A stretch of 64,000 bases of DNA from an uncultured virus (IMG/VR IMGVR_UViG_3300032073_000002) (taxonomy: Duplodnaviria > Heunggongvirae > Uroviricota > Caudoviricetes): the IMG/VR virus record IMGVR_UViG_3300032073_000002; one strand, given 5' to 3'. This document shows positions 16,038-40,131 of the stretch, one piece after another. Each line of letters starts with the position of its first letter. The first letter of the stretch is position 1. A program made the translations under genes and the position numbers. The notes beneath the pieces were generated by a model. It was given only the letters and a program-made list of their open reading frames with translations, was not told the DNA's origin and did no database searches.

Positions 16038-17615
16038 CTAATCGCCAATTGGCAATCTTCTTTTCACTTTTAAAAAGTCTTCAAGATTATTTATGGTTGA
16101 ATAATCCATCCCTTTTACCCATGGGCCACCACGTGTATAATGTATACCACTGTAGTTGTACTTTTCTTCATGGTTATCATATCCTTCTACAAAGATATAA
16201 TGTTCGGGTATTTTAGAGATTTTATCTGTCCACTCAAATTGATGTAGCTGTTTTCCTGTCCAAGTGTTAACAACTTCGGGTGTTAGCTTCTTACAGTCTT
16301 CATGTCCATTATTGAATACCATCATACTAGACCAAAGCTTCTTAGGGTAATCTATATTAACTTCACCATCAAACTTTGTTTCATCATGTTTGTATTGTGG
16401 ATATTGTATACATGCAACAGCATCATTAGGGTTTAAGTAGTAAAACATTGGTAGTATACTTTTATTAAAGATGAAGTCATCATCAATAAAGATACTAAAT
16501 CCTTCGTAGTTCTCTAAGTAAGGTATTAGGAATCTACTGTATGTAAATTCAGTACTTTGATTTGCATACTCTCTAGTATACTCGGGAATCTTAGAAATGT
16601 CAAGTATTTTAACTTCGGGTTCCCATTTAACTTGGTCATGCATCCAACCTCTACCAAATCCGTTTTTAATACTTTCTAGGATTGCAAACTTAGAACACTT
16701 AGACAAATCTCCATGTCTACTATCATGTCCAATATAGATTGTTAGGGGTTTACCTTTTGCAAGTTCATAGACCTGTTTGTTAAATGCATGTACTTCATCT
16801 CTGAAATCTAAGTCCATTAATGCAGTATTATATTCAATACAACCATCCACATATGTGAATGAACAATGGTATTGCTTGTCTAATCTCTTTAACTTAGTAT
16901 ACCACATCTCTAATACGCTGTCAAGGCTTGTCGGTTCAACTTTCACAACATCAAAATTATCTATTACCATAATTTCCATATCGTTGTCTTGCATCTCTTC
17001 AAAGACACCCGAACGAATAGAGCCTGGGTGTATTCTAAATGTGTAAGTAGATTCAGTATTCATACCAGTGACACCATTATCTACAACATATCCTTGAATA
17101 GGAGCTCTTAAACCTTCCTCTTGGATACTTTGAATTAGCCAGTGTGCTTTTGCACCGTGATAATACATAGACAACAATGAACCCTCTGCATGTTGGTCTC
17201 TGTTTTCAACTGTGTCCCAATCGATTAATGTATCTATATCTACATATCCATTAGAATCTTTCATGTCCATACCTGCTACGCCTGGAATTACCTTTCTAGG
17301 TTTCTCTGCATAACCAACTGGTAAAAACTTGTGATAAGTTACTGACTCATTTCTTAATCCATTGAACCCACCAAATCTGTTTTCTTTTCTTAGATATTCA
17401 AAGTCTTTCCACTTTGCAATCTTTACTGGTGGTAGAATTTCTTTGAACATCCACTCAAGTATTTTATAGGTTTCTGAAGTTTTTGAATAGCCTGGTTCTA
17501 TATTAAATGCACCAAGATGAAAATTACCAATGGCCTGTCTTTCTTGTGAGGTTATCTTAGGGTCATAAGGTTTTATTAATTCTTTTGCTTGTTCTAGGGT
17601 TTCAATTTTCTGCAT
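16038..17615 (-). CDS. Two-domain protein: ParB/Srx-like N-terminus plus GT-A glycosyltransferase (CDI/GT8-related)
   Basis: C-terminus has IYIGHDSR, STEFTYSRFLIPYL, FIDDDF (DxD), YPKKLWSSMM and HYTRGGPW. N-terminus has LIQSIQEEGLRAPI...IHPGSIR. Confidence 0.8.
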   Translation of the reverse strand: MQKIETLEQAKELIKPYDPKITSQERQAIGNFHLGAFNIEPGYSKTSETYKILEWMFKEILPPVKIAKWKDFEYLRKENRFGGFNGLRNESVTYHKFLPVGYAEKPRKVIPGVAGMDMKDSNGYVDIDTLIDWDTVENRDQHAEGSLLSMYYHGAKAHWLIQSIQEEGLRAPIQGYVVDNGVTGMNTESTYTFRIHPGSIRSGVFEEMQDNDMEIMVIDNFDVVKVEPTSLDSVLEMWYTKLKRLDKQYHCSFTYVDGCIEYNTALMDLDFRDEVHAFNKQVYELAKGKPLTIYIGHDSRHGDLSKCSKFAILESIKNGFGRGWMHDQVKWEPEVKILDISKIPEYTREYANQSTEFTYSRFLIPYLENYEGFSIFIDDDFIFNKSILPMFYYLNPNDAVACIQYPQYKHDETKFDGEVNIDYPKKLWSSMMVFNNGHEDCKKLTPEVVNTWTGKQLHQFEWTDKISKIPEHYIFVEGYDNHEEKYNYSGIHYTRGGPWVKGMDYSTINNLEDFLKVKRRLPIGD

Positions 17616-17701: not shown

Positions 17702-19324
17702 CTATGATGTGATTGGTGTTGCAGGCCATTGTTGTGATACCACTCCATCCCATCTTGCTTCGGGTGTTCTCCCTTGTCTTGAATAGGTGAATGGACTTCT
17801 ATGCTGATAAGTCGTTGGTGTCTGACCTGTTCTTTGATATGTAAACGGACTTCTATGGTTATAAGTCGTTGGTGTCTGACCTTGTCTAGCATACGTAAAC
17901 GGTGACCTGTGAGAATATGTTACAGTTGTTTGACCAGTTCTTTGATACGTAAACGGTGTCTGTGCATTCCTTATGTTTGGTTCTTGAGCAGCTGCAATAT
18001 AAGGATACGGATTCTGTTTGTTTCTTATATTGGGTTCTTGTGCATTTACAGGATTCCTATAAGTGAACGGTGACCTATGTTGATACGTAGAAGGTTGACG
18101 TGCATTACTAGGATTCTGATAAGTAAACGGTGACCTATGACTATACGTAAACGGTGTCTGATTGTTTCTAATATTAGGTTCTTGTTGACTTCTAATATTA
18201 GGTTGTTGTGCATCTCTAATATTAGGTTCCTGTGCAGATACAGGACTTCTATATGTAAATGGTGACCTATGACTATACGTAAACGGTGTTTGTGCGTTTC
18301 TAATATTAGGTTCTTGTTGTGACCTTATATTTGGTTCTTGTTGGTTTCTAATATTAGGCTCTTGTGCATTACTAGGATTCTGATAAGTAAACGGTGACCT
18401 ATGACTATAGGTAAACGCTGCCTGATTGTTTCTAATATTAGGTTCTTGTTGTGACCTAATGTTCGGTTGTTGTATGTTTCTAATATTAGGTTCTTGTCCA
18501 TTACTAGGATTCTGATAAGTAAACGGTGACCTATGACTATACGTAAACGGTGTCTGATTGTTTCTTATGTTTGGTTCTTGTTGTGACCTAATGTTCGGTT
18601 CTTGTTGGTTTCTAATATTAGGCTCTTGTCCATTTACAGGATTTCTGTATGTAAACGGAGACCTATGGTTATAAGTAAACGCTGCTTGTGCATTTCTAAT
18701 ATTAGGTTCTTGTTGACTTCTAATATTAGGTTCTTGTGCCGAACGTATATTAGGTTCTTGTCCATTTACAGGACTTCTATATGTAAATGGAGACCTGTGG
18801 TTATAAGTAAACGGTGTTTGACCCTGTCTTGCATATGTAAATGGTGACCTATGAGAATACGTTAACGGTGACCTATGTGAATACGTTAAAGGTGACCTAT
18901 GTTGATATGAACTCGGTTGTCTTGCTTCTCTTATGTTAGGTTGTTGTGCAGATACAGGACTTCTATATGTAAATGGTGACCTATGATTATATGTAAACGG
19001 AGACCTATGGTTATAAGTAAACGGTTGTCTTGCATTAGCAATGTAAGGTACTCTGTATGTAAACGGATTCCTTGCATTATTAGGTTGTCTTGCGTTAGTA
19101 GGGTTCCTATATGTAAATGGTGCTTGGAATGTGAACGGTTGTTGACCATTCGCTGGATACCTAGCATTATACGTAAATGGTGCTTGGAATGTGAACGGTT
19201 GCTGTGCATTCGCTGGATACCTTGCACTATACGTAAATGGTTGTTGAACAATCGAAGGCGTCTGTACATCAACGGACACTTGTCCGTTTTTGATAGTCGG
19301 TTGTTGTCTTTGACCTATTGGCAT
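17702..19324 (-). CDS. Pro-rich modular repeat protein B (540 aa); predicted antiparallel partner of protein A
   Basis: Residues 7-518 parse entirely into 69 modules of 6, 8 or 10 aa (RSPFTY, RNPVNA, QEPNIRxx, RSPxTYxH, QNPYPYIAxA, RSPFTYxRxG). Confidence 0.85.
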   Translation of the reverse strand: MPIGQRQQPTIKNGQVSVDVQTPSIVQQPFTYSARYPANAQQPFTFQAPFTYNARYPANGQQPFTFQAPFTYRNPTNARQPNNARNPFTYRVPYIANARQPFTYNHRSPFTYNHRSPFTYRSPVSAQQPNIREARQPSSYQHRSPLTYSHRSPLTYSHRSPFTYARQGQTPFTYNHRSPFTYRSPVNGQEPNIRSAQEPNIRSQQEPNIRNAQAAFTYNHRSPFTYRNPVNGQEPNIRNQQEPNIRSQQEPNIRNNQTPFTYSHRSPFTYQNPSNGQEPNIRNIQQPNIRSQQEPNIRNNQAAFTYSHRSPFTYQNPSNAQEPNIRNQQEPNIRSQQEPNIRNAQTPFTYSHRSPFTYRSPVSAQEPNIRDAQQPNIRSQQEPNIRNNQTPFTYSHRSPFTYQNPSNARQPSTYQHRSPFTYRNPVNAQEPNIRNKQNPYPYIAAAQEPNIRNAQTPFTYQRTGQTTVTYSHRSPFTYARQGQTPTTYNHRSPFTYQRTGQTPTTYQHRSPFTYSRQGRTPEARWDGVVSQQWPATPITS

Positions 19325-19362: not shown

Positions 19363-21120
19363 TTACGGCTCCATGACATTAGGTGGATTACCACCACCAA
19401 AAGTGAAGTAGTATGTAAACGGACTTCTGTGTTGGTACGTTATGGGTTGTTGTGCAATACTTGGGGCCCTAGAGTTTGCACCAGTTCTTGCGTTTGCAAT
19501 GTAAGGCACTCTATATGTAAATGGGTTTCTTGCACTATTTGGTTGTCTTGCATTCGCTATATAAGGTTGTCTATATGTGAATGGGTTCCTTGCATCGTTA
19601 GGTTGCCTTGCATTAGTAGGGTTCCTGTACGTAAATGGTGCTTGGAATGTAAAAGGTTGCTGTGCATTCGCTGGATACCTTGCATCATACGTGAATGGAC
19701 TCCTTGCATCTCTAATGTTAGGTTGTTGAATTGCCCTAATGTTAGGTTCCTGTGCGTTTACTGGATTCCTATATGTAAACGGAGACCTATGGTTATAAGT
19801 AAACGCTGCCTGATTATTTCTAATATTAGGTTCTTGTTGTGACCTAATATTTGGTTCTTGTTGTGACCTAATATTTGGTTCTTGTGCATTTGCAATATAA
19901 GGATACGGTTGTTGTGCAGAACGAATATTAGGTTCTTGAGCAGACACAGGGTTCCTATATGTGAACGGTGACCTATGTTGATACGTAAATGGAGACCTAT
20001 GATTATATGTCAAAGGACTTCTATGTTGGTATGTACTAGGTTGTCTTGCTTCTCTTATGTTAGGCTCTTGTGCAGATACAGGACTTCTATATGTAAATGG
20101 AGACCTATGAGAATATTCCAAAGGCGACCTATGTGAATATGTTAACGGTGACCTATGTTGATAAGTTGCAGGCTGTCTTGCATCTCTAATATTAGGTTCT
20201 TGTCCATTCACTGGATTTCTGTAAGTGAATGGAGACCTATGTTGATAGGTAAATGGTGACCTGTGAGAATATGTCAAAGGACTTCTATGTTGGTATGTAC
20301 TAGGTTGTCTTGCTTCTCTAATATTAGGTTCTTGTCCATTCACTGGATTTCTGTACTCGAATGGAGACCTATGATTATATGTCAAAGGCGACCTATGTGA
20401 ATATGTTAACGGTGACCTATGTTGATACGTAGAAGGTTGTCTTGCATCTCTAATAAAAGGTGCTTGTCCATTCACTGGATTCCTATATGTAAACGGTGAC
20501 CTATGTTGATACGTAAATGGAGACCTATGACTATACGTTAAAGGACTTCTATGTTGATAAGTTGCAGGCTGTCTTGCATCTCTAATATTAGGTTCTTGTC
20601 CATTCACTGGATTTCTGTAAGTGAACGGTGTCTGTGCATTCCTTATGTTTGGTTCTTGTGCATTTACAGGGTTTTGATATGTAAACGGTGACCTATGTTG
20701 ATAAGTCGTTGGTGTTTGACCTTGTCTAGCATATGTAAATGGACTTCTATGTTGGTATGTACTAGGTTGTCTTGCTTGTGCTATATAAGGATACGGCTGT
20801 TGTTGGTCTCTTATATTAGGTTCTTGTGCATTTGCAATATAAGGATACGGATTCTGTTGGTTCCTTATGTTAGGCTCTTGTGCATTTGCAATATAAGGAT
20901 ACGGATTCTGTTTGTTTCTTATATTGGGTTCTTGTCCATTTGCAATGTATGGATAAGGAACTTGAGTCGCAGTCTGCCCCGATGCGTTATTCCATCCTGT
21001 AGGGGTTTTAATGTAGATTTGGTCAACTGCTTTCCATGTGGAACTAGCTGTTTTTACCCATGCACCTTGAGTTGAATTCCAACCTGCTGGTGTTTTGACC
21101 TTTTGTGAACCTGTTGCCAT
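19363..21120 (-). CDS. Pro-rich modular repeat protein A (585 aa) with N-terminal Trp-rich adaptor-like domain
   Basis: N-terminal KVKTPAGW..AWVKTASSTWKAVDQIYIKTPTGW, then 69 modules in residues 53-564; AATAAATA promoter-like element at 21145-21152. Confidence 0.85.
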   Translation of the reverse strand: MATGSQKVKTPAGWNSTQGAWVKTASSTWKAVDQIYIKTPTGWNNASGQTATQVPYPYIANGQEPNIRNKQNPYPYIANAQEPNIRNQQNPYPYIANAQEPNIRDQQQPYPYIAQARQPSTYQHRSPFTYARQGQTPTTYQHRSPFTYQNPVNAQEPNIRNAQTPFTYRNPVNGQEPNIRDARQPATYQHRSPLTYSHRSPFTYQHRSPFTYRNPVNGQAPFIRDARQPSTYQHRSPLTYSHRSPLTYNHRSPFEYRNPVNGQEPNIREARQPSTYQHRSPLTYSHRSPFTYQHRSPFTYRNPVNGQEPNIRDARQPATYQHRSPLTYSHRSPLEYSHRSPFTYRSPVSAQEPNIREARQPSTYQHRSPLTYNHRSPFTYQHRSPFTYRNPVSAQEPNIRSAQQPYPYIANAQEPNIRSQQEPNIRSQQEPNIRNNQAAFTYNHRSPFTYRNPVNAQEPNIRAIQQPNIRDARSPFTYDARYPANAQQPFTFQAPFTYRNPTNARQPNDARNPFTYRQPYIANARQPNSARNPFTYRVPYIANARTGANSRAPSIAQQPITYQHRSPFTYYFTFGGGNPPNVMEP

Positions 21121-28290: not shown

Positions 28291-28620
28291 TTACCTCGTC
28301 ACACTTGGGGTTACGATGGCTTGTCCTTCTATTACTCTAGTCGTTGTTGAACCACTAGTTACAGTCATATCGTAAACATACCTGCCTGGCTCCAATGCAC
28401 CAGTAACAGTATCGGTTAATGATAAAGTTACCTTACCATCAGACGCTGATACTACAGTACTGAATGTTGCACTTGCATTTGTTGAAGTATATGTCTTTCT
28501 CATTTGTGCAGCTGCAGTATAACCTGTTAAGTTAAGAACATTTCCAGTTGCATCGGTGACATCTACAGTAATGCTGAAGTCTGTATGTTGGTCGATAAAT
28601 ATGTTTGCAAGAATAGCCAT
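28291..28620 (-). CDS. Small virion structural protein (BppU-like beta sandwich)
   Basis: NIFIDQHTDF, LNLTGYTAAAQMRK, GRYVYD and RVIEGQAIVTP. Confidence 0.65.
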   Translation of the reverse strand: MAILANIFIDQHTDFSITVDVTDATGNVLNLTGYTAAAQMRKTYTSTNASATFSTVVSASDGKVTLSLTDTVTGALEPGRYVYDMTVTSGSTTTRVIEGQAIVTPSVTR

Positions 28621-28656: not shown

Positions 28657-29829
28657 TTAAGCACCAAACTCACCCATTGGGAACTGAGCAGTTGGTACAG
28701 ATTGGTGTGTTTTCCTTGCAGTTCCACTATCATTTACATAAGCTTCTTCTACCTTTCTTAGAGTTCCATTGTCATTAATGAATACACCTTTAACTTTTGC
28801 ATTTCTAGGTATGACTCTTTGATGTGAGTAAGTAACTTGATAGGTAAATGGACTTTGGTGTTGATATGATATCTGAGCTCCAGCATTATAGAAGAAAGGT
28901 GTTTGTGTATTTCTAATATTAGGTTGTTGTCCTTGTACTGAATTTTGATATGTGAACGGACTTCTATGTGCATAGGTAAATGGACTTCTTCCATCTGCAA
29001 TATATGGATAAGATACTTGCTTGTTTCTAATATTAGGTTCAGTTGCAGTTGCAATGTAAGGATAAGGTACATCGCGATTACCAATAGCTGGTTGTTGACC
29101 TGTTGTTGCATACGTAAATGGACTTCTATGTTGATAGATACTTGGTAATTGACCAGTTCTTTGATACGTAAATGGTGTTTGACTTTCTTTTACAACATTT
29201 GTTTGTGCATTACTAGGGTTTCTATATGTAAATGGAGACCTATGGTTGTATGAAACTTGTCTTATTGCTTGTCTATTATATGTAAACGGACTTCTTGTCT
29301 CGTAGGTAAACGGTGACCTATGAGCATATGTCGCAGGTTGTCTTGCATCACGTATGTTAGGTTCTCTTCCCTCTACAGGACTTCTATATGTGAGTGGACT
29401 TTGATGTTGATACGTAGACGGTGACCTGTGACTATATGTTAAAGGACTTCTATGTTGGTATGTATTAGGTTGTCTTGCCTCTCTTATGTTTGGTTCCTGT
29501 GCATTCACTGGACTTCTATAAGTGAACGGACTTCTATGTGCATAGGTAAATGGTGACCTGTGACTATATGTTAAAGGACTTCTATGTTGGTATGTACTAG
29601 GTTGTCTTGCTTCTCTAATATTAGGCTGTCTTGCATTTACAGGATTTCTATATGTAGTAGGTGTCTGACCCTGTGTGTCATAAGTTGCAGGCTGTCTTGC
29701 ATTTCTAATATTTGGTTCTTGTGCATTTGCAATATAGGGATAGGCGTTTTGTCTATTTGCTATAGAAGGCATCCTATATGAAACTATAGTAGGTTGTTGT
29801 AAACTATATGGTTGTTGAGCAATGGCCAT
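28657..29829 (-). CDS. Pro-rich modular repeat protein D (390 aa) with C-terminal adaptor-like domain; predicted partner of protein C
   Basis: Residues 5-336 parse into 43 modules; C-terminal KVKGVFINDNGTLRKVEEAYVNDSGTARK; start overlaps the stop of C. Confidence 0.85.
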   Translation of the reverse strand: MAIAQQPYSLQQPTIVSYRMPSIANRQNAYPYIANAQEPNIRNARQPATYDTQGQTPTTYRNPVNARQPNIREARQPSTYQHRSPLTYSHRSPFTYAHRSPFTYRSPVNAQEPNIREARQPNTYQHRSPLTYSHRSPSTYQHQSPLTYRSPVEGREPNIRDARQPATYAHRSPFTYETRSPFTYNRQAIRQVSYNHRSPFTYRNPSNAQTNVVKESQTPFTYQRTGQLPSIYQHRSPFTYATTGQQPAIGNRDVPYPYIATATEPNIRNKQVSYPYIADGRSPFTYAHRSPFTYQNSVQGQQPNIRNTQTPFFYNAGAQISYQHQSPFTYQVTYSHQRVIPRNAKVKGVFINDNGTLRKVEEAYVNDSGTARKTHQSVPTAQFPMGEFGA

Positions 29830-31571
29830 TATTGTAAATCTCCACCACCCTTAGACATCGACAATTGAATCAATTGACTCGTTGGGTTTGTTGTATAGAT
29901 AGTAGGATTACTTCCAACATTTCCATTCACAACTTTTAATTGTATTGAAACACCTGTAGAACGAAGATAACCTAAAGAACCTTGGTTACTACTGCCAGAA
30001 CTTGCAGACCACTTAAACCCTACCGCTGTTGAACTATTATCATTTTGTTCTCCATCCCAAATAAAATAAAATTGGTTTTTAACTTTTGCACCAGTTTCGT
30101 TAGCTGAATCATTTGGAAATTCAGCTGAACCACCAAAATTACTGTCATCTATATCAGCATTAGAATTCCATTTAGCAGATATCTCTATACCATCTCCATC
30201 TTGACTATCACCTTGGAAGTCTCCATAGAAGTTAATATAGTCTTCATAAACTGGGCCCATTGCTGCGCTATCGACTGCATACCATTTTGCTTTAACTGAA
30301 TATGCATTGGTACCACTTTCTTGCCAATCGAATCGCATTAAGCAACTGCCACTTGTTGCATATGCTGAAGAATGACTTCTTGTTGTTTCCCAAGTTCTAT
30401 TTGTTGTTGTGAGGCCTGACTGAGATTGACCCGCGTTAATATGAATCGCTGCACTGTTGCCTGGGCCCCAAGTAGTGTTGCCTGCATTGTTTGGTGCATC
30501 CTCTCCATCCACTCCATCATATATGGCGGGTTGTTGGGCAATTATTGGAGTTGATGAACTTGTAGTTGCTGGTGTCTGTACATTATAAGTCGTTGGTGTT
30601 TGACCTTGTCTTGCGTATGTAAATGGACTTTGATGTTGATAGGTAAACGGAGTCTGAGAATTTGCACTATAGGGATAAGGATTTTGTTTATTAACAGGGT
30701 TCTGATAAGTAAACGGTGACCTATAATTATAAGTAAACGCTGCTTGTGCATTTCTAATATTAGGTTCCTGTTGGTTTCTAATATTAGGCTCTTGTGCATT
30801 CTTAATAGTAGGTTGTTGTGCAGATACAGGATTCCTATATGTAAACGGTGACCTATGTTGATACGTAAACGCTGTTTGACTGCTTCTAATATTAGGTTCT
30901 TGCTGATTTCTTATATTAGGTTCTTGTTGGTTTCTAATATTTGGTTCTTGAGCAGACACAGGGTTCCTATAAGTGAACGGTGACCTGTAGTTATAAGTAA
31001 ACGGTGTTTGACTGTTTCTAATATTAGGTTCTTGTGCATTGACTTGATTCGATTCTTGTCCAGCTGCAATATAAGGATACGGTTGTTGTGTATCTCTTAT
31101 GTTCGGTTCTTGTGCATTTACAGGATTCTGATAAGTAAAGGGACTAGGGTGTTGGTAGAACCCAGGCTGTCTAGCATTTGCAATATAAGGATAAGGACTT
31201 TGTAAAGCCCTTCCATTTGGTTGTTGACCAGCTGCAATGTATGGATAAGGATTCTGAAAATTATATGTTGCTGGTTGCAGTCCTTGTCTTGCGTATGTAA
31301 ATGGACTTTGATGCTGATAGATTGTAGGTGTCTGACCCTGTCTTGTGTAAGTAAAGGGTTGTTGTGCATTCCTTATGTTTGGTTCTTGGCCAGATACAGG
31401 AGTATTGTATATGAACGGAGACCTGTATTGATACGTTGAGGGTTGACGAGATTCAGCTGTATAGATAGACTGTGTCTGTCTAATGTTTGGTTCTTGACCA
31501 TTTACTGGAACTCGAGCATTGTACGGTTGCTGAATTTCCGTTTCTATGTTTACAAATATTTCTTCAGACAT
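29829..31571 (-). CDS. Pro-rich modular repeat protein C (580 aa) with a C-terminal globular, possibly receptor-binding domain
   Basis: Residues 14-345 parse into 43 modules; about 230 non-repetitive S/G/N/W-rich residues follow. Confidence 0.85.
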   Translation of the reverse strand: MSEEIFVNIETEIQQPYNARVPVNGQEPNIRQTQSIYTAESRQPSTYQYRSPFIYNTPVSGQEPNIRNAQQPFTYTRQGQTPTIYQHQSPFTYARQGLQPATYNFQNPYPYIAAGQQPNGRALQSPYPYIANARQPGFYQHPSPFTYQNPVNAQEPNIRDTQQPYPYIAAGQESNQVNAQEPNIRNSQTPFTYNYRSPFTYRNPVSAQEPNIRNQQEPNIRNQQEPNIRSSQTAFTYQHRSPFTYRNPVSAQQPTIKNAQEPNIRNQQEPNIRNAQAAFTYNYRSPFTYQNPVNKQNPYPYSANSQTPFTYQHQSPFTYARQGQTPTTYNVQTPATTSSSTPIIAQQPAIYDGVDGEDAPNNAGNTTWGPGNSAAIHINAGQSQSGLTTTNRTWETTRSHSSAYATSGSCLMRFDWQESGTNAYSVKAKWYAVDSAAMGPVYEDYINFYGDFQGDSQDGDGIEISAKWNSNADIDDSNFGGSAEFPNDSANETGAKVKNQFYFIWDGEQNDNSSTAVGFKWSASSGSSNQGSLGYLRSTGVSIQLKVVNGNVGSNPTIYTTNPTSQLIQLSMSKGGGDLQ

Positions 31572-31572
31572 A

Positions 31573-33162
31573 TCATACTACAAACCATATGTGTCCAGTC
31601 GACGTTGACCCAACACCACTAGGTGCAGTTGACACAATTGCATAATCCAATTTAACATTATCGGATTCTAATTTAATTCCTTCACTTGCGTTGACAGCAA
31701 ACGTTAATCGAGTGTCTGAGCCAGTCCCTGTGTATGATTCACTTAGACCAGCACCTGCTACCATTAAATCATTTACATCGGAATCCCCATATTGAGGAGC
31801 TGCAGTAAGAATAATTTTATCATTATTATCTTGATAGTCTGCAGTTATATTTGAGTGGTCATTGTGGTCTAGTAATCCTTTAACTTTGTCTTGTGCGTAT
31901 TCTTGGAAAGTCTCTCCATTGAATGTTAAGTTACCATCGATGTCAACATCTCCACCAAAGTTAGTGTTACCACTAATGTCTGCATTTCCGTTGATATCAA
32001 GTGAACCACCTTCTATCTCTCCAGTTGCAGTAACGTTTCTAAATCCAGTGATATCTTTATTTGAATCTACTGCAACTGCTTTACTAGCAATTACAGTTCC
32101 GTTTGTTAGGTCATCAATTTTTTCTAAATCTGTTTGGTCTATTCTTGCATTTCCGATTACGAATTCGCTTCCAGCAGTAATATCTCCAGTTGCAGTAACG
32201 TTTCTAAATCCAGTGATATCTTTTGATGAATCAACTGCAACTACGTTACTAGCAGTAACACTTCCTAGTGTAGTTCCGTCAAGATAGTTAATCTCTGTAG
32301 TGGATAAAGTTGCACCGTCTATTATCTCTAGTTCAGTCTCATTTACTCTTGCATTTCCGATTACGAATTCACTTCCAGCAATTATGTCTGTAGATGAAGT
32401 AATGTCTCCACCAGCAGTTACCGTTGAAGTCAGAGCTGCAGTCCCACCACTTAGGTTACCGTTGAATATTGTTGAGGTGATAGAACTAAAACCTGTACCC
32501 ACACCGCCTGTAATCGTTGCTGTTGAATCGGTGAAGGTTGGTGCAGTGATTGTATGTCCAGTATCTACTGTAAAGTCGCCATCATGGAAAGTCTTACCAT
32601 ACATTTCAATTGTATTTGTACCAGTAAGAGCTGTTACCCTGTTAGCATCATCTGCATAATTACCATTTAAAATTATTCCACTATCGTTATTATTATAAAT
32701 TGTGTTTTCAGATGTCTCTGTAAAGAAACCAATTGATTGACCACCGATTGTAGATGTTCCTAAGTATGAACCTGTGAAAGAATATATGACAACCATGTCA
32801 TTTGCAGCTGCAGCTGATGTTAGAGTCAATCTAAAATAGATATTTCCAGTTACTTGGGATATAGAATAGTCTGCACCCTCTAATAATAGAGTTGAATTCT
32901 TAAATACTTGGAATCTATCCTGTCTTAATCTAAGTGTATTACTAAAATCGTCTGCACCAGTGAATACTGACTGACCAGCTGTTGCAGTATAGATAAACTC
33001 TTGGAAAAAGAATGACTTATCTTCCAAACTATTAAGTGCATCTATTACTGTTTCAGTATTTTCTGTTCTTAAGCCAGACTTATCACCAACATCAACAGCC
33101 AATTCGTTGTATTTGGTTCTAAACTGTTCAATAGTTGAGTATGTGTCTACTGTTTTTGCCAT
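31573..33162 (-). CDS. Tail fibre protein (529 aa)
   Basis: N-terminal STIEQFRTKYNELAVDVGD, internal duplication, C-terminal STAPSGVGSTSTGHIW motif. Confidence 0.75.
   Translation of the reverse strand: MAKTVDTYSTIEQFRTKYNELAVDVGDKSGLRTENTETVIDALNSLEDKSFFFQEFIYTATAGQSVFTGADDFSNTLRLRQDRFQVFKNSTLLLEGADYSISQVTGNIYFRLTLTSAAAANDMVVIYSFTGSYLGTSTIGGQSIGFFTETSENTIYNNNDSGIILNGNYADDANRVTALTGTNTIEMYGKTFHDGDFTVDTGHTITAPTFTDSTATITGGVGTGFSSITSTIFNGNLSGGTAALTSTVTAGGDITSSTDIIAGSEFVIGNARVNETELEIIDGATLSTTEINYLDGTTLGSVTASNVVAVDSSKDITGFRNVTATGDITAGSEFVIGNARIDQTDLEKIDDLTNGTVIASKAVAVDSNKDITGFRNVTATGEIEGGSLDINGNADISGNTNFGGDVDIDGNLTFNGETFQEYAQDKVKGLLDHNDHSNITADYQDNNDKIILTAAPQYGDSDVNDLMVAGAGLSESYTGTGSDTRLTFAVNASEGIKLESDNVKLDYAIVSTAPSGVGSTSTGHIWFVV
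32017..32224. repeat. Intragenic direct repeat (about 40 bp identical core) within the 529-aa fibre
   Basis: TCTCCAGTTGCAGTAACGTTTCTAAATCCAGTGATATCTTT occurs twice (KDITGFRNVTATG x2); AGSEFVIGNAR is also duplicated. Confidence 0.8.
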
Positions 33163-33371
33163 TATGTCCTATCCAATAATTGTTGAAGCATCAATTTCAT
33201 CTCTGATACGTCACTTTTAAGAGTATTTATCTCTTCTTTCTGAGCTAAAAATCTTTGTTTTCTAACTTTATGTAATCTATATTGTTCTACGTCTGTATTT
33301 ATGATAGCATGAGAAGTTTCTTCTCTATAAAGATGAGTATGTCCTTCGACTTTGATACCCATCTTATGCAA
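33162..33371 (-). CDS. Small hypothetical protein (coiled-coil C-terminus)
   Basis: KVEGHTHLYRE..AIINTD..EINTLKSDVSEMK; overlaps both neighbours. Confidence 0.7.
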   Translation of the reverse strand: MHKMGIKVEGHTHLYREETSHAIINTDVEQYRLHKVRKQRFLAQKEEINTLKSDVSEMKLMLQQLLDRT

Positions 33372-36300
33372 GTGCCATACATCTTAGTGCAGTTACCGCT
33401 GGCACTATTGCTGTACTTGTTCCTTGTCCCACTATCTTAACAACGAATCCACTAAACTCGGGTAAATTATCTGCAGTGAACTCATATTCTTTAAAGTTTC
33501 TTGCATCTGCTTCTGTTGTGACATCGGGTGAACCATCCGTATTGAAATATTCAAATCCGACATCATCTAATAAAGTTTCTTCGTCATTTTTGATGATTTT
33601 ATACATCAATTTAAGTTCTGTTGTTGGTGGTCTATACATATCTGCAATAACTTTTAAAGATGTTGCTGGAGTTTTAAGATTCACCTTCCTTGTTACATAG
33701 ACCATTGCATTATTATCACCCTCTGACTCAGTTGATGGAACGAATGTTGAACCGACTGGTAAGGATTTTGTAGTACCATTGTTTTTAGTACCAGTTGCAC
33801 TGTCTATATTGTTAATTCTGTTTGCAATTGCTAAACAACCCGCTGCTTGTATATCAATCATAGGTGATATGTTAGGGTTGAATGACATTAATTGTAATTG
33901 TAAATTGAAAGATTTCTGTGATGACATCTCTCTAGATTCATTATCACTTGAAGCTACAATTGATGGTGTGTCAAAGAATACATTATCATTTAATGTTACA
34001 AATTTATTTGTTGAACGTCTTTGATATGCCTCTCCACTAATAATACCTTCGGGTGAATACTGAGGAGTTGTAAGAACGTTTGCACTAATAATGGTTCCTT
34101 GCAGTTGAACTGAAGGAATCATTGTATGAATTGCATCAAAGTAATAGTTTCTTGTTGCAGTTGCATTTGCACCACCACCGATTGTTGATTCGAATGCATA
34201 AAGACTTGAGAATGAGTATCCGCTGAGAGATGGAGTAAATCTAAATGAATCTATTCCTCTATCTGCAAGAGTGCTATGTAATGTATTGATTACTGCAATA
34301 GGACAACCACCTAAAGTATCTTCGGGTGTTCCTAATACTACACTTACATCTGCATTGGAAGTTCCAATATTTGTAATTGTAATGTTATCACCAGCAGTAT
34401 AGTTCTGTCCAACTTTTAAAATATTTACATCTGTAATTGCACCACTTGCTATGATAACTTCACACTTGATTCCACTACCTGTTCCACCACTATGAGTATC
34501 ATCTGTACAGTTGATTGTTCCATCTGCTGGTAAAGTATCAGAACCAATCTGTGAGAAACTTGATACTATCACTGCAGAATTTTTCTTGTCTCCAACAATA
34601 CCAGCTATTGTTACATTATCTTTATTATTGGTGTCATCATAGAAACCATGATTATAAGAATACACTTTAAGTTTTTTATCTGCAAAAGTTTCTATCGGAT
34701 TTGTTTGTAGGTTAGTGTATGGTAAAGCATCATTTTCGAAATTAACATTACCAACTTTATCAATCTCATATTTTGCAACCTTCATGTTAAATTTAAGGTC
34801 ATCTGTTTGTTCTGCAGTCCAAGTAGAAGCATTCTGTGACATGAATAATGAACCAGCATATGGTTGTCCACTTATAACTTCTGCAGTTGTTAAATCTGTT
34901 TCACCCATTCTAGAAATAAAGCACTCATACTCATTAGAGTTTGAGTATACAACGAAACAATATTCATTGTCCTGTTCTAAGTGAACTGGTGATTCGAATG
35001 TAAATGTTGTTGCAACTGAACCATCAGCTGATGTATTAATATCATCGGGGTTTTTAGTAACGTCTGAGAAAGGTAATACTATCTGGCCTGGATATCCATT
35101 TACCATGTTTCTAATTTGTACTGAACAAGGCATAAATGTATCTTTTGTTGCAAAGAATAAATCTATTGAAGTCATATCCATACCACCTTGTGCATCAACC
35201 AAGAATGATTGTGCAAGTGGGTCACCCCATCCTCTCATCTCTCCACCATTTAAAGCAAAGATTAAAGGTCTTTCTATTGTTCGTTCTACAAAATCTCTTC
35301 TATCAATTTGTGGCACTGCTACTGGTAAAGGTGGCGGTGTTGGAAGAGTTATAACTGGTGGTATAAATCTAATATCGGGTATGATGTTAGGTATTGTAAT
35401 TGGAAAGTCGGGAATTATAGGTTCGGGTATATCAATTATTTGAATAGAGTTATCGACTGGTATCTCGTTTACTGGTGGGAAAATTGGGCCATCTGCATGT
35501 ACTTCAGAGTTTAATCTCTCACCTCTTCTTGAGAAGTCTCTTGTTGCTGAATGGTCTTCTCTAATTACTCTACCATTTCTTGTTGATACGATTTCTGTTT
35601 GTGTTGCTTGTAAAATACCTTGTGCAGAGTACATTCCATTTCCCTGTGAAGCAGGGTTTGCCATATTGTAGAAACTTGAAGTAATTCTTAAGTCTCTTTG
35701 ACCTGTTGGGAATCTTTGAGCTGCACTGTTAGGCAATTCAAAGTATGCTCTTAGTCTTCCATTACCATCTGTTTTACATTCTGAAGTAACTGTTGTTCCA
35801 CCGTCTTGTGAATACGTTGCATTGAAAGGTCTTACAAATTTGTTAACATTGATGTTATCAAAATAGAAGTAATGGTTTGAATTTGGTTTTAAATTTGTTG
35901 CATCAATTTCAATTGTTCTTGAACGGATAAATGGTATCAATGACATTGATACAACTCTATCGTTTCTTGTCTCTACAAAATCTTCAACTACAGTTGTTGT
36001 TACACCAGTTCTTGTTTGAATTTCGGGTGTCTCTGTAATTTCTCTACTAACAGTTATTCCTGCTACCCACTCTCCACCTTGTAATGGGTCTCCACTCCAT
36101 GAACCATTTGAAGTTGATTGAACTTCTGTTGATACAGCTGAAGGTTCTCCAACCCATGTTGTTTGCCATGAGTTCCAAACTGTTCCTAATGAGTTTGCAT
36201 TCTCAGCCATAACAGCATCAAAGTTACCTTCACGGTTAACTCTCACATCGGGTAATCTTTCTGTGTCTTGCCAGATATCTGTATCGGGTGTTAATTTAAC

Positions 36301-39300
36301 ATTACCGATAAATGCAAATACGTGATAAGGGTTAACATTAATTGAACGAGAAGCTTTATCTTGATTAACATAACTAACTTCACTATATGGTAAAGTAATT
36401 ATATCACCAGTCTTTTTAAAGTTTGTTGATGCACCTACGTTTTGTGTAATACCAAAGAATTGAGTAAATGACTTAGGTCTTAACATACCCATCTTGGTAT
36501 CAATAGCACAGTTGTAATCGGGATGATTTACATCACCAATTTTATGACCTCTGAAGTTATCTACTAAGAAGCCTGATTTGTATCTATCAAATCCGTCTGC
36601 ATCTAAAATTTGTTTTGTTTGTGTGTCTTTTTCTAATAGAGAAAGAGATGTAATTCTTTCAAGGTTAGTAACCCTATTGTTTATCTTACCGATATCCTTC
36701 ATGGTATATCGTCTATGGTCAAAACTTCTTATTTGAACATCACTTAATTTATTGGTATACGGTGGTATTCTCATTTCGAATAACTGTATACTATCATCTA
36801 AAGCTGTAGGTTTAGTTGGAGATAATGCTGGAGTTCCTTGAGATATTTCGAACTTACCTTTCTTATGTAAGAATACTTTATCTATTCTTCCAACATAGAA
36901 TTCAATATCACCTTTAAGAGATGAACCACTTACTGGAACATCTACTGCGTTAGCACCTGTATCTGTAATACCAGTTCTTGCATCAGCGAAAGAACGACCA
37001 CTCTCATAACCAAATGGTGCAAATACAGCTCCACTGGTTGAGTTCGATAAATCTACTGCAGCTGCTACGTTCTGAGAAACATTAGATGAAAATGTAGTTG
37101 TCCCTAAAATTTGTCCTACTACTGGTCTAAAGTCAACACAATCTGAAAGTTCAAATGTTCCATCGGGTTCTAGTCCACCTAAGTCTACCTTGTTTGGTGA
37201 GTAAACTGGAATGTCTTTATAATCGATTGATGAATAAGAATTTACATCAAAGAAGTCTCCACCACCCGATACTGTAAAGGAATCAAACACTAGTAAAAGT
37301 GGATTACTTGGTTTAGGTTGGCCAGGTTTTAATGTTAGTTTGGATAAGTCATAGTATCCATCTCTTTGACCATTGTCAAAGAAGTATCTGTCTTTAATGT
37401 CGGGGGAACCTGCGTTAACTCCACCACTTTCTGCAGTCGGCATTGTACCACTTGCAAGTGATGTTTGTCCTACTACAGTTTCACTTGGTAAGAATACTTC
37501 ACCATCTGTTGATGTATAATACCAATATGAGAGATTACCACCACCAAAATTAATAAGACTTGCTCTTGCACCCGAAGTCTGACCAATGATTATTTCGTGG
37601 TTAACAAATTCATCACTTGTGGTTATAATTGCATTTGGAGTAATTGGTGTCCCATCAATTCCTTCGAATACTCCAATAACTTTGTGTACGTCTGCAACAC
37701 CTAATGTAATATCTTTGTCATCGTATGCAGTTCCATAGAAACCATTATCACTTCTAGGTTTTGATACTTTTAAAACTCTTGCTTTGGATAATGATTTACC
37801 TCTTGAGGTAACACCACTAGTTTTTGTTACTGTATATGTTACATCAACAAAGGCACCATTGTTACCTGTAAGAGTCAAAGTTAATACTTCTGCGTTACCA
37901 GCAACGTTTACACTTGGGTTTAAATCTTCAACATTAAGTAAATCCCCAGCTGCATAACCACTACCTGCTTCTCTTACTGAGATTGAAAAGTTATCTGTAT
38001 TTCGTGCATTGAATGTCTCATGGGCTCCAGTAGTTATACTTATCTGATTAGATGCAACTTCTTTAACTACTTGTCTTCTTACTGTTACAGATTTTGGAGT
38101 ATGACTTGCAACAAAATCTCTTGGGAATGCATGTATGTTTGCAGTCTGATTTTGGTCAAACAATTTTGCACGTCTTCTGACTGCATTACCACTTCCAGCT
38201 GCTATTGAGTTTGCAGTCAAGACTAAAGCTGTTTCTGAGGTGACTGAAGCAACGGTATTAACATTACCTGCTTGGTCTATTATTTGGTCACCCTCTTTTA
38301 ATTCTTTTGCAAACTGAGTTGCAAAACCTGTTACAGCTGTTGAGTTTGTAGCTACAAAGGTAACTGTTCCACTTAGAACATTATCTTGTGATAATGAAAC
38401 ATCTGCAGTGAAAATTTCTCTGTTAGTATTGTTAGGTTTTTGTGCAACTGCTCTTGCACGGTCAATGTTGTAAGTTCTAATTGCACTACAAGATGTAAGT
38501 GTTGCAGTGCTTCCACCACCTTCTGCTGATATATTATCAGAAGTTGTAAATGCACCTTGTACATCATGTACAAAGAGATTACTTCCCTCGACATGGTGAA
38601 CGATAGCACTTGTACCAGTTGAACTACCAGTAACTTTATCACCTGCTACGAATGTGTTTGCAATCGTACCAGTAAGTTTAGTAAACATCTTGATATCAAA
38701 TAAATATAAATTCCAAAGAGCTGTGTCTGTATAGACATCACTTGAGTCGATACCTTCATGAAGGTCTACGTTTCTAATTCTACATGTTCCAATATTACCA
38801 GTTGCACTTAAGGCTCCATCTGTATCTGATATACCTAAGTCTGCTACTAGGTTATCATATAGTAATGCTGGATTATGTGGGTCAATAGTATCTGAACCAG
38901 TTTCGTTACCGAACTCGGGTAGACCATGAGCATTAGTAACTCTTAATTTATTTCCTAATCTGATTGGTGCTGATACACCAGTCAATGATTCTGTTGTTCT
39001 TGCTTTTTGAATGTTTAGAGTAGTTGTTCCAACTTTATCAATTTCATAACCTCTAACATATGCCTTGCCCGGCGATACCATGAATACGAATCTTCCTTCG
39101 TCTCCACCATTATTCTTCGTATAGAAACCTAAATTAGTTCCGTCATCTAAATGTTGTCTTAATGATGCAGTAAATTGTGTGACTACGAAGTCTCCGTTTG
39201 CATCGAATGTTCTTCGTGCAAGAGTGTTTTCTATTTCTGCATATTTTGTTTTGTCTATTTTAAGTGTGATAACACCTGCGTTAACTCTTGATAGTTCAAC

Positions 39301-40131
39301 GAAGGATGTACCTAATACTGAGTCTAATGTATGTTTTGCTAGTGTTAAACTGAATTTTAAACGGTCTGCTCCAGCTGCATTTTCATTTGATGTACCCGCT
39401 GCATTATCTTCTAAAGAGTCGTCTGCAGCTGATGTTACTAAAGATTCAACAATATCTAAACCTACTCTGTATGAAGGAGCTCCACTATATTTTTCTAATA
39501 TAATAGTTTGTTTGTCTACCTTTGTAAAGAATCCTCTTGTGAATACAACACCTTCTGTTATCTCTGCAATAGATGCTCTACCTGTTGGTGTTTCGGAAGA
39601 AGGTTGTATTTCTAAATCATTTTCGGTAGATGTATCTGTAGTAACAGTACCACTTGAATTATATCCAACTAACTCTAATGTTTCTCCTGCTGAGAACATA
39701 AAGTCATTAGTAGAATTAGTACCTTGTTGTACTGGTCTAATAAACATTGTTAATTTATCTGCACTAGTTTCTGCAGTTGACGTTACTACTTTTGCAACAA
39801 CACCACTTGTTTGTCCTCTGACATACTTATCATGAAAGGATGTTCTATATGATTCTACTGCACTGTTGCCTAATGGATTTGGATTGGCTGCTTTTACTTT
39901 AACAAAGTAAATATCCATATCGATGTTCGTTTGAGCACCTTGGATAATAGTACCTTCTTCAAAAAAATGGTCTCCCATTCTTTCGATTTGGTTTTGTAAA
40001 ATAGATTGAGACTGTGTTAATTCCCTTGCTTGCAAAGGACGACCAGCCCTATAAAGAACTTTATGGAACTTCTTATCTTCGGAATAATCGTCGTAATAGG
40101 GTGATATATTTAAGTCTGTCTTCTCTGCCAT
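33364..40131 (-). CDS. Large virion structural protein (VrlC/DUF4815-like baseplate or fibre protein, 2255 aa)
   Basis: LNISPYYDDY..GRPLQARELTQSQSILQNQIE, LARRTFDANGDF, PGKAYVRGYEI, RYKSGFLVDNF and DPLAQSF motifs. Confidence 0.85.
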   Translation of the reverse strand: MAEKTDLNISPYYDDYSEDKKFHKVLYRAGRPLQARELTQSQSILQNQIERMGDHFFEEGTIIQGAQTNIDMDIYFVKVKAANPNPLGNSAVESYRTSFHDKYVRGQTSGVVAKVVTSTAETSADKLTMFIRPVQQGTNSTNDFMFSAGETLELVGYNSSGTVTTDTSTENDLEIQPSSETPTGRASIAEITEGVVFTRGFFTKVDKQTIILEKYSGAPSYRVGLDIVESLVTSAADDSLEDNAAGTSNENAAGADRLKFSLTLAKHTLDSVLGTSFVELSRVNAGVITLKIDKTKYAEIENTLARRTFDANGDFVVTQFTASLRQHLDDGTNLGFYTKNNGGDEGRFVFMVSPGKAYVRGYEIDKVGTTTLNIQKARTTESLTGVSAPIRLGNKLRVTNAHGLPEFGNETGSDTIDPHNPALLYDNLVADLGISDTDGALSATGNIGTCRIRNVDLHEGIDSSDVYTDTALWNLYLFDIKMFTKLTGTIANTFVAGDKVTGSSTGTSAIVHHVEGSNLFVHDVQGAFTTSDNISAEGGGSTATLTSCSAIRTYNIDRARAVAQKPNNTNREIFTADVSLSQDNVLSGTVTFVATNSTAVTGFATQFAKELKEGDQIIDQAGNVNTVASVTSETALVLTANSIAAGSGNAVRRRAKLFDQNQTANIHAFPRDFVASHTPKSVTVRRQVVKEVASNQISITTGAHETFNARNTDNFSISVREAGSGYAAGDLLNVEDLNPSVNVAGNAEVLTLTLTGNNGAFVDVTYTVTKTSGVTSRGKSLSKARVLKVSKPRSDNGFYGTAYDDKDITLGVADVHKVIGVFEGIDGTPITPNAIITTSDEFVNHEIIIGQTSGARASLINFGGGNLSYWYYTSTDGEVFLPSETVVGQTSLASGTMPTAESGGVNAGSPDIKDRYFFDNGQRDGYYDLSKLTLKPGQPKPSNPLLLVFDSFTVSGGGDFFDVNSYSSIDYKDIPVYSPNKVDLGGLEPDGTFELSDCVDFRPVVGQILGTTTFSSNVSQNVAAAVDLSNSTSGAVFAPFGYESGRSFADARTGITDTGANAVDVPVSGSSLKGDIEFYVGRIDKVFLHKKGKFEISQGTPALSPTKPTALDDSIQLFEMRIPPYTNKLSDVQIRSFDHRRYTMKDIGKINNRVTNLERITSLSLLEKDTQTKQILDADGFDRYKSGFLVDNFRGHKIGDVNHPDYNCAIDTKMGMLRPKSFTQFFGITQNVGASTNFKKTGDIITLPYSEVSYVNQDKASRSINVNPYHVFAFIGNVKLTPDTDIWQDTERLPDVRVNREGNFDAVMAENANSLGTVWNSWQTTWVGEPSAVSTEVQSTSNGSWSGDPLQGGEWVAGITVSREITETPEIQTRTGVTTTVVEDFVETRNDRVVSMSLIPFIRSRTIEIDATNLKPNSNHYFYFDNINVNKFVRPFNATYSQDGGTTVTSECKTDGNGRLRAYFELPNSAAQRFPTGQRDLRITSSFYNMANPASQGNGMYSAQGILQATQTEIVSTRNGRVIREDHSATRDFSRRGERLNSEVHADGPIFPPVNEIPVDNSIQIIDIPEPIIPDFPITIPNIIPDIRFIPPVITLPTPPPLPVAVPQIDRRDFVERTIERPLIFALNGGEMRGWGDPLAQSFLVDAQGGMDMTSIDLFFATKDTFMPCSVQIRNMVNGYPGQIVLPFSDVTKNPDDINTSADGSVATTFTFESPVHLEQDNEYCFVVYSNSNEYECFISRMGETDLTTAEVISGQPYAGSLFMSQNASTWTAEQTDDLKFNMKVAKYEIDKVGNVNFENDALPYTNLQTNPIETFADKKLKVYSYNHGFYDDTNNKDNVTIAGIVGDKKNSAVIVSSFSQIGSDTLPADGTINCTDDTHSGGTGSGIKCEVIIASGAITDVNILKVGQNYTAGDNITITNIGTSNADVSVVLGTPEDTLGGCPIAVINTLHSTLADRGIDSFRFTPSLSGYSFSSLYAFESTIGGGANATATRNYYFDAIHTMIPSVQLQGTIISANVLTTPQYSPEGIISGEAYQRRSTNKFVTLNDNVFFDTPSIVASSDNESREMSSQKSFNLQLQLMSFNPNISPMIDIQAAGCLAIANRINNIDSATGTKNNGTTKSLPVGSTFVPSTESEGDNNAMVYVTRKVNLKTPATSLKVIADMYRPPTTELKLMYKIIKNDEETLLDDVGFEYFNTDGSPDVTTEADARNFKEYEFTADNLPEFSGFVVKIVGQGTSTAIVPAVTALRCMALA

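Follow-up and report, generated by a model that had tools for sequence, protein, structure and literature searches.

Mirror-complementary repeat arms encoded by adjacent genes of an uncultured marine T4-like phage

In antiparallel coiled-coil arms and in heterodimeric leucine zippers, the partner and the register are written in a periodic pattern, and long antiparallel rods of this kind exist. The stalk of the streptococcal antigen I/II folds back: its N-proximal repeats are antiparallel with its C-proximal repeats, and a variable domain sits at the apex. Here, we describe two adjacent genes, C and D, at positions 28,657 to 31,571 of a sequence of 64,000 nucleotides from an uncultured virus (IMG/VR record IMGVR_UViG_3300032073_000002; we will call this whole stretch the window). 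Both proteins contain long arms of short modules, and if the order of the modules in D is reversed and the two classes of module are swapped, the result is the order of the modules in C.

Fold-back fibers, and fibers made of short units, have been described in phages as well. In the needle of the T4 long-tail-fiber protein gp37 (D10-D11), which is a trimer, the chain runs out and back, with the tip at the turn; D10 comprises residues 811-881 and 1010-1026 (PMC6957217, excerpts). The same excerpts describe the needle as being held by seven iron atoms, at sites along the axis that are formed by His residues. The C-terminal domain of gp5 and gp12 are triple-stranded β-helices with strand units of 8 residues (gp5) or about 6 residues (gp12) and with a fixed in/out pattern, and the octapeptide of gp5 has Gly at position a and an inward-facing Val at position g (PMC3004832, excerpts).

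The window is part of the genome of an uncultured marine T4-like myovirus, and encodes gp6-, gp5-, and gp25-like baseplate proteins (PHROG matches). Besides C and D, it contains a paralogous pair of genes, A and B, at 17.7-21.1 kb.

Reversed module order in C/D and A/B

When all four proteins (A-D) are split with a plain regular expression, xPxx[YR], the pieces have 8, 10, or 12 residues, or multiples of these. The modules consist of a five-residue core, xPxx[Y/R], and a variable part, and they are 6, 8, or 10 residues long. There are two classes:

EPNIR-like class: NPVNAQ (6 residues), EPNIRNAQ (8 residues), NPYPYIANAQ (10 residues)
SPFTY-like class: SPFTYR (6 residues), SPFTYSHR (8 residues), SPFTYARQGQ (10 residues)

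The initial annotation of this region had given the modules one-letter names, of which N, V, and Y belong to the EPNIR-like class and H, F, and G to the SPFTY-like class. Its 12-residue F+V unit is a pair of 6-residue modules.

Across 88 related proteins, the spacing between successive anchors (xPxx[YRFK]) is even in 2603 of 2610 cases. In the DNA, there are tandem periods of 24 and 132 nucleotides in C, in D, and in the paralogous pair; both periods are seen at 30694-31076 (in the C arm), and the period of 132 nucleotides is seen at 29335-29652 (in the D arm). The repeat regions of A-D are rich in Pro (11.9-14.1%) and Gln (10.6-15.7%) and contain only 1-2 Lys residues each, and the arms have little Gly (1.4-2.9%), Val (1.9-2.9%), or His (1.3-3.7%). 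Because there is a Pro every 6-10 residues and the spacings are even, a helix is excluded and an extended backbone is indicated. From the even lengths of the modules, we infer an extended β-type backbone with a two-residue in/out rhythm along the rod.

The features of the two pairs are:

29829..31571, minus strand: gene C, the upstream arm protein (open reading frame, 580 amino acids)
30576..31511, minus strand: repeat arm of C, residues 21-332; 40 modules (22 of the EPNIR class, 17 of the SPFTY class, 1 unclassed)
29832..30575, minus strand: C-terminal part of C, residues 333-580; a short Thr/Ser linker and a non-repetitive domain
29827..29831, minus strand: TAATG junction, in which the stop codon of C and the start codon of D share one base
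28657..29829, minus strand: gene D, the downstream arm protein (open reading frame, 390 amino acids)
28837..29772, minus strand: repeat arm of D, residues 20-331; 40 modules (17 of the EPNIR class, 22 of the SPFTY class, 1 unclassed)
28660..28836, minus strand: C-terminal domain of D, residues 332-390, which contains RVIPRNAKVKGVFINDNGTLRKVEEAYVNDSGTARKTHQ; match to phrog_13729 at residues 344-377
19363..21120, minus strand: gene B, the upstream arm of the paralogous pair (585 amino acids)
17702..19324, minus strand: gene A, the downstream arm of the paralogous pair (540 amino acids); mirror-complement of B at i+j=573

We labelled the modules by hand in residues 21-332 of C and residues 20-331 of D, which gives 40 modules and 312 amino acids in each arm. 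Reversing D and swapping its classes reproduces C without exception: all 40 modules agree in class and in length, in the register i+j=352. The same operation on A reproduces B at all 69 hand-labelled modules, in the register i+j=573. The initial annotation had proposed 43 modules and 332 amino acids in each of C and D; we could verify 40 modules (312 amino acids), and the three terminal modules, marked x, are unclassifiable. The range it gave for D, residues 5-336, is off by two, as the register i+j=352 pairs residue 14 of C with residue 338 of D and residue 345 of C with residue 7 of D. It had also described the rule as four letter pairs (F:V, N:H, Y:G, and D:I). The complementarity is there, and the four pairs reduce to two classes by three lengths. 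D:I is not a rule of its own: it corresponds to one degenerate 8-residue pair, TPFFYNAG facing SIYTAESR, which an automatic parser assigns to the SPFTY class and the EPNIR class, respectively.

This parser segments each protein alone, using the Viterbi algorithm and position matrices from the canonical modules of the window that have P at position 2. In a rigid, ungapped mirror register, it found 39 facing modules for C:D, of which 38 are complementary, and 68 for A:B, of which 67 are complementary. Non-cognate combinations among A-D reached at most 21 modules, and the best parallel registers had 19 modules (for C/D) or 35 modules (for A/B). When we shuffled the order of the modules in D 1000 times, the mean was 7.4 and the maximum was 13, as compared to 38 observed; for B/A, the maximum across 1000 shuffles was 16. 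Both the hand labels and the parser thus agree with the original proposals that the internal 40 positions of reversed D complement C and that C/D is a second pair that follows the rule of A/B with a different order of modules. Partner specificity, which had been suggested from the differing orders, holds in silico, and may extend to physical pairing.

The two open reading frames and their TAATG overlap are where the initial annotation placed them. The overlap hints that C and D might be translationally coupled, and possibly made in the 1:1 stoichiometry that had been proposed. Logan contigs of 1038 nucleotides from two DNA runs bridge this junction.

Between the genes for C and D, we found just three inverted pairs of at most 18 nucleotides, so we can rule out that the mirror arose from an inverted duplication (reverse complement) of the DNA. 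The window does not contain the perfect 12-nucleotide palindrome that we had anticipated under PNIR.

Outside the arms, no well-scoring modules were parsed in residues 333-580 of C, and this region is conserved among full-length orthologs (alignment A1). The C-terminal domain of D is conserved in orthologs of D (alignment A2) and at the C-terminal end of the fused single-chain forms that are described below. Its PHROG match, phrog_13729, is a family of unknown function. We had considered that the N-terminal domain of B and the C-terminal domain of D might be the same attachment domain, and dropped this idea because they are not similar (E = 3.6).

Co-variation and fused forms in related viral contigs

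We scanned IMG/VR with C, A, and D as queries, which gave loci numbered L009 to L159. These include 49 distinct pairs of adjacent genes on the same strand. After removing two rows for L067, which were an artifact of overlapping open reading frames, 47 pairs remained, with 43 distinct pair architectures and with registers from 223 to 573. For these cognate pairs, the median fraction of mirror-complementary modules was 0.87 (range 0.60-0.97), versus 0.19 for 2136 non-cognate combinations with different architectures (95th percentile 0.63, maximum 0.96). The high fractions among the non-cognate combinations arise because some of these are near-orthologs. For 34 of the 47 upstream proteins, the protein's own downstream partner was the best or joint-best match. 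The 13 misses involve near-identical orthologs, or else one partner is short of about one or two 44-residue units. When we aligned the modules with gaps, 1758 of 1996 columns were exact complements; there were also 33 class clashes, 65 length mismatches, and 109 gaps.

The orthologs of C/D illustrate how the two proteins change together. They have three architectures, with registers of 352 (the window and L011), 342 (L013 and L112), or 356 (L106 and L108). A hand parse locates the differences between them in the latter half of the arm, with the mirrored change present in each D. The matrix of all C/D combinations is block-diagonal, with fractions of 0.70-0.88 within an architecture versus 0.36-0.53 across architectures. 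The rule also holds for a pair of the B/A type from L014, in which a run of six EPNIR-type modules faces a run of six SPFTY-type modules. In these related phages, compensating changes preserve the rule.

Among metagenome proteins, we found 419 homologs of C (E ≤ 1e-3). The C-like upstream proteins (P0001-P0120) have conserved N-termini, such as MSEEIFVNI, MSDEIYINTG, MSDDIFIKQDQ, or MADKLFIKHN, and very diverse C-terminal ends. This diversity is as expected if tip domains are exchanged between phages.

Of the 120 homologs of C that we listed, 12 join a C-like N-terminus (MADEIYIN...) to a tail that resembles the C-terminal end of D. The mirror between the N-terminal half and the C-terminal half of the same protein beats all 300 shuffles for 10 of the 12 fused forms (P0018 and P0076 fail). 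A degenerate center of about 100 residues lies between the mirrored halves. A hairpin topology predicts that the two arms can occur fused in a single chain, and in the split version, we propose that the non-repetitive C-terminal domain of C would take the place of the turn. Self-mirrors were not found in three further candidates (P0103, P0123, and P0124), nor within A, B, C, or D of the window. Among the relatives of D, the only one with over 684 amino acids was P0090, which is a C-like protein with an extra domain; the fused forms turned up among the homologs of similar length.

In many B-like upstream relatives, the arm ends in a run of Gly, followed by Cys and a Hint/intein-like domain. We found matches to Hint families (Pfam PF14890 and PF01079) in six relatives:

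L014, 5848-7212: Hint-bearing relative
L015, 5851-7152: Hint-bearing relative
L062, 1852-3951: Hint-bearing relative
L155, 3846-5459: Hint-bearing relative
L158, 3890-5719: Hint-bearing relative
P0037: Hint-bearing relative

Three of the six are above the cut-off for Pfam's Intein_splicing (45.1, 41.9, and 38.9 bits) and the other three are below it. In these relatives, the self-cleaving module would sit exactly at the proposed hairpin turn. A Pfam search found no Hint domain in C or B of the window; at the C-terminal end of the window's B (19363-19410), GGG is kept and is followed by only 11 residues.

There might also be a code at the level of residues. We considered 418 unique combinations of facing 8-residue modules, pooled from the 47 pairs, which are phylogenetically related to each other. 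Opposite modules of the xPNIR type, position 7 is His in 236 of 297 cases, Tyr in 54, Phe in 7, and never Asn or Ala. Opposite modules of the xPYIA type, it is Asn in 31 of 59 cases, Ala in 24, His in 3, and Ser in 1. Mutual information between the facing modules is concentrated in two anti-diagonal quadrants. This looks like a sub-code, with the Arg at position 5 of EPNIR-type modules opposite His, Tyr, or Phe, and with Tyr3 and Ala5 of xPYIA-type modules opposite Asn or Ala, so that the aromatic residue switches sides. These couplings are suggestive, and are consistent with antiparallel contact.

Proposed assembly and alternative explanations

We think it likely that C and D together make up a single fold-back fiber of the virion, of the β type and with two antiparallel chains as its arms, from the host-recognition cluster of a pelagimyophage-like marine T4-type phage. 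The C arm would run outward and the D arm would run back, and each module would lie opposite one that has its length but belongs to the other class. Which proteins pair (C with D, A with B), and in which register, would be dictated by the order of lengths and classes. At the distal turn, the non-repetitive C-terminal domain of C and the N-terminus of D would form the likely receptor-binding tip; at the other end of the rod, the N-terminus of C would lie together with the C-terminal domain of D. The extended β-type backbone would have a constant in/out rhythm along the rod. Further bundling is probable, for example of three C and three D chains, as in other phage fibers. Simple arithmetic from β-sheet geometry gives about 100-110 nm for an arm of 312-332 residues if it is fully extended, and the 110 nm of the initial annotation is this arithmetic. 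The sequences directly show the mirror rule, its partner specificity, how it co-varies among relatives, and the fused forms, and from these patterns we infer physical pairing, the topology, the β geometry, the oligomeric state, the place in the virion, and the role in receptor binding. More broadly, we lean towards the view that marine T4-like phages have a natural and readable code for protein pairing, in which two classes by three lengths, read antiparallel, would set partner and register, would be kept by compensating changes, and would operate both in trans and in cis.

Several observations weigh against this proposal. Because the parser can assign nothing but even lengths and its training modules came from this window, its results might be biased. 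(The even spacings and the coincidences of unit boundaries are independent of this bias, because both come from the regular expression.) In four loci with pairs of the B/A type (L034, L035, L047, and L073), the lengths of the partners differ by about one or two 44-residue units, and these proteins are otherwise near-identical to those of matched pairs. Either the repeats collapsed during the assembly of short reads, or mismatches are truly tolerated as a natural polymorphism. The couplings between residues can arise indirectly, from module-level complementarity and the effects of neighbors within each chain, and the pairs are related. Also, the register of residues is defined only up to the phase of the modules: shifting both chains by d gives an equal mirror at K+2d. 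Finally, neither D nor a profile of C orthologs matched any PDB chain at E ≤ 1, and among 50,697 phage records, we found no real relatives from cultured phages (by megablast and tblastn with the C/D region and with C).

Other searches gave little to go on. There is no Pfam family for C or D, and their only PHROG match is the one on the tail of D. B and D had only short matches of low identity to cultured phages, with coverage of at most 40%. In the literature that we searched, the main texts of papers outside subscription journals, we found no description of these repeat proteins. A match of the C-terminal domain of C to DUF6645 from the ESM Atlas (score 0.90) was rejected, as the features shared numbered just 108-122, no more than chance would give. 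AlphaFold2 gave unusable models for the C-terminal part of C from a single sequence (predicted local distance difference test, or pLDDT, of 34) and for the fused form P0014 from an alignment of 15 rows (pLDDT of 32.8). In the P0014 model, the strands assigned by DSSP (15-38/42-48 and 406-412/416-439) are equally long and add up to 454, versus 453 for the module register; we did not count this. A prediction of the complex of C (residues 1-350) with D (residues 1-390), using alignments A1 and A2 and run without controls, had a score of 0.00, which is no answer and is evidence neither way.

The pairing might be real but more compact than we propose. C and D could form an interdigitated β-helix or cross-β stack, with one short strand and a corner per module, with three C chains running up and three D chains running down, and with neighboring strands of equal length. 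Given the geometry of β-sheets, a stack with one strand per module would be about 20-40 nm long, instead of about 100 nm. Phage fibers are trimeric as a rule, and because facing modules have equal lengths and the lengths are even, the rod would have the same cross-section and in/out pattern throughout. The units of the gp5 and gp12 β-helices, with 8 and 6 residues (PMC3004832, excerpts), fall within the range of the module lengths here (6, 8, and 10). On the other hand, the modules have Pro instead of the Gly/Val pattern of the gp5 octapeptide, neighboring rungs would be unequal if successive units have 8, 10, and 12 residues, and the predictions gave no usable model. Also, we know of no antiparallel six-start β-helix. 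Overall, we consider a compact stack to be unlikely, if worth keeping in mind.

It is considerably less probable that C and D make no contact and build separate homo-oligomeric fibers, with the mirror due to some other constraint, such as a third component along which both lie in opposite directions, or an evolutionary process that acts on repeats. Almost all characterized phage fibers are parallel homotrimers (PMC3004832, excerpts), a mismatch in the number of units is tolerated in some pairs, and the binding of C to D is our interpretation. However, no known mutational process would give class-swapped and order-reversed repeats between genes in direct orientation, the DNA has no inverted similarity, and a third component that acted as a ruler would need to have the same code. 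Compensating changes in 43 architectures and the fused forms are both predictions of direct antiparallel contact.

We give hardly any credence to the idea that C and D are largely disordered proteins of low complexity, such as spacers or substrates for cross-linking, and that the pattern has no structural meaning. The pLDDT was below 50 throughout the predictions, the repeats have the high Pro and Gln contents noted above, and B scores 48.6 bits (summed) against Pfam's Cementoin (PF10511). But no stretch of B passes for Cementoin alone, and neither C nor D has a match to it. Disorder would not impose even spacings in nearly every case, nor would it produce a mirror that is exact and is maintained by compensating changes. 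The near absence of Lys from the repeats also argues against disordered substrates. Cementoin is the transglutaminase-substrate repeat of trappins; B's score is probably due to a chance resemblance of repeats of the NPVNGQEP type to this short repeat.

Gene neighborhood, distribution, and comparison with known fibers

C and D lie about 1.8 kb downstream of a large baseplate protein with DUF4815, and their neighbors are tail-fiber-like genes. Upstream of C, the order is the DUF4815 protein, an open reading frame of 69 amino acids, and a fiber-like gene:

33364..40131, minus strand: DUF4815 baseplate protein, 2255 amino acids; matches Pfam DUF4815 and phrog_358
31573..33162, minus strand: fiber-like gene, 529 amino acids; stops one base ahead of the start of C; matches phrog_30158 (function unknown)

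The fiber-like gene may belong to the same fiber module as C/D. We take the DUF4815 protein to be VrlC, which would mark the start of a host-recognition cluster. In pelagimyophages, a hypervariable host recognition cluster with tail-fiber genes lies between VrlC, which is a baseplate protein, and gp14, downstream of VrlC (PMC7029224, excerpts). The location of C/D fits with such a cluster, provided that the DUF4815 protein is VrlC. "DUF4815" has no occurrences in the text of PMC7029224, and its excerpts do not mention repeats of this kind. It is because of the gene neighborhood only that we place C and D in the virion.

Just downstream of D, a gene of 109 amino acids (28291-28620) matches phrog_1084 and phrog_3304, and the latter is annotated as "L-shaped tail fiber protein assembly." It may be an assembly factor for the adjoining fibers. 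Beside gene A, a protein of 525 amino acids (16038-17615) matches phrog_28018 and has a weak match to glycosyltransferase family 8 (21.2 bits, which is below the cut-off). Consistent with this, glycosyltransferases occur within the host-recognition clusters of pelagimyophages (PMC7029224, excerpts).

The closest cultured relatives of the window's gp6-like baseplate protein are from Methylophilales phage Melnitz and from Pelagibacter phages Mosig and HTVC008M (39-41% identity). An IMG/VR fragment, G001, has 69% of the window's words in common with it and encodes a D that is identical to the window's. Contigs from 14 DNA runs labelled as viral, seawater, or marine metagenomes contain a nearly identical copy of the C-D stretch (at least 0.93 of the words sampled); the best-matching run may be the window's own source. 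Six runs from RNA libraries contain 0.20-0.61 of the C-D words. For two DNA runs, Logan contigs span each of the 30 bins of the stretch but break inside the repeats. Contigs from RNA libraries cover 28 and 23 of the 30 bins, possibly due to carried-over DNA.

If the chains do zip together, then this would be an undescribed way to build a long protein rod, with partner and register legible from the order of the modules. It would be like the heptads of coiled coils, except for an extended and proline-punctuated backbone, or like a peptide analog of strand complementarity. It would explain how one phage avoids mis-pairing of the similar fiber proteins A/B and C/D, and it would help to find the host-recognition fibers of uncultured marine T4-like phages that lack a cultured representative. 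The natural variants are ready-made compensatory changes, so the hypothesis is directly testable.

Among known systems, coiled coils and leucine zippers are built from α-helical heptads, as opposed to the even spacings and the Pro every 6-10 residues that we see here. The antigen I/II stalk is a single chain of a bacterial adhesin, and its arms are an α-helix and a polyproline helix with repeats of unequal length. gp5 and gp12 are, like C and D, fibrous phage proteins of short units, but they are parallel homotrimers of one protein, with no partner protein and no mirror rule. Instead of a Gly/Val octapeptide as in gp5, which we did not find, the modules here have xPxx[Y/R] and a linker, and a reversed-order rule between two proteins would argue against a simple parallel homotrimer. 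The gp37 needle is formed from a single chain rather than from two genes, its arms have about 70 residues versus 312-512 here, and the excerpts cited above mention neither a module code nor complementary classes for it. Searches of the PDB at E ≤ 1 found no sequence relation of D, or of the profile of C orthologs, to gp37 or to other solved fiber proteins. The iron sites of gp37 are HxH motifs, and unlike gp37, A, B, C, and D contain none of these. What C/D would share with the gp37 needle is the out-and-back topology with antiparallel arms and the tip at the turn, which we propose for the two-gene form and with which the mirrors between C and D and within 10 of the 12 fused forms are consistent.

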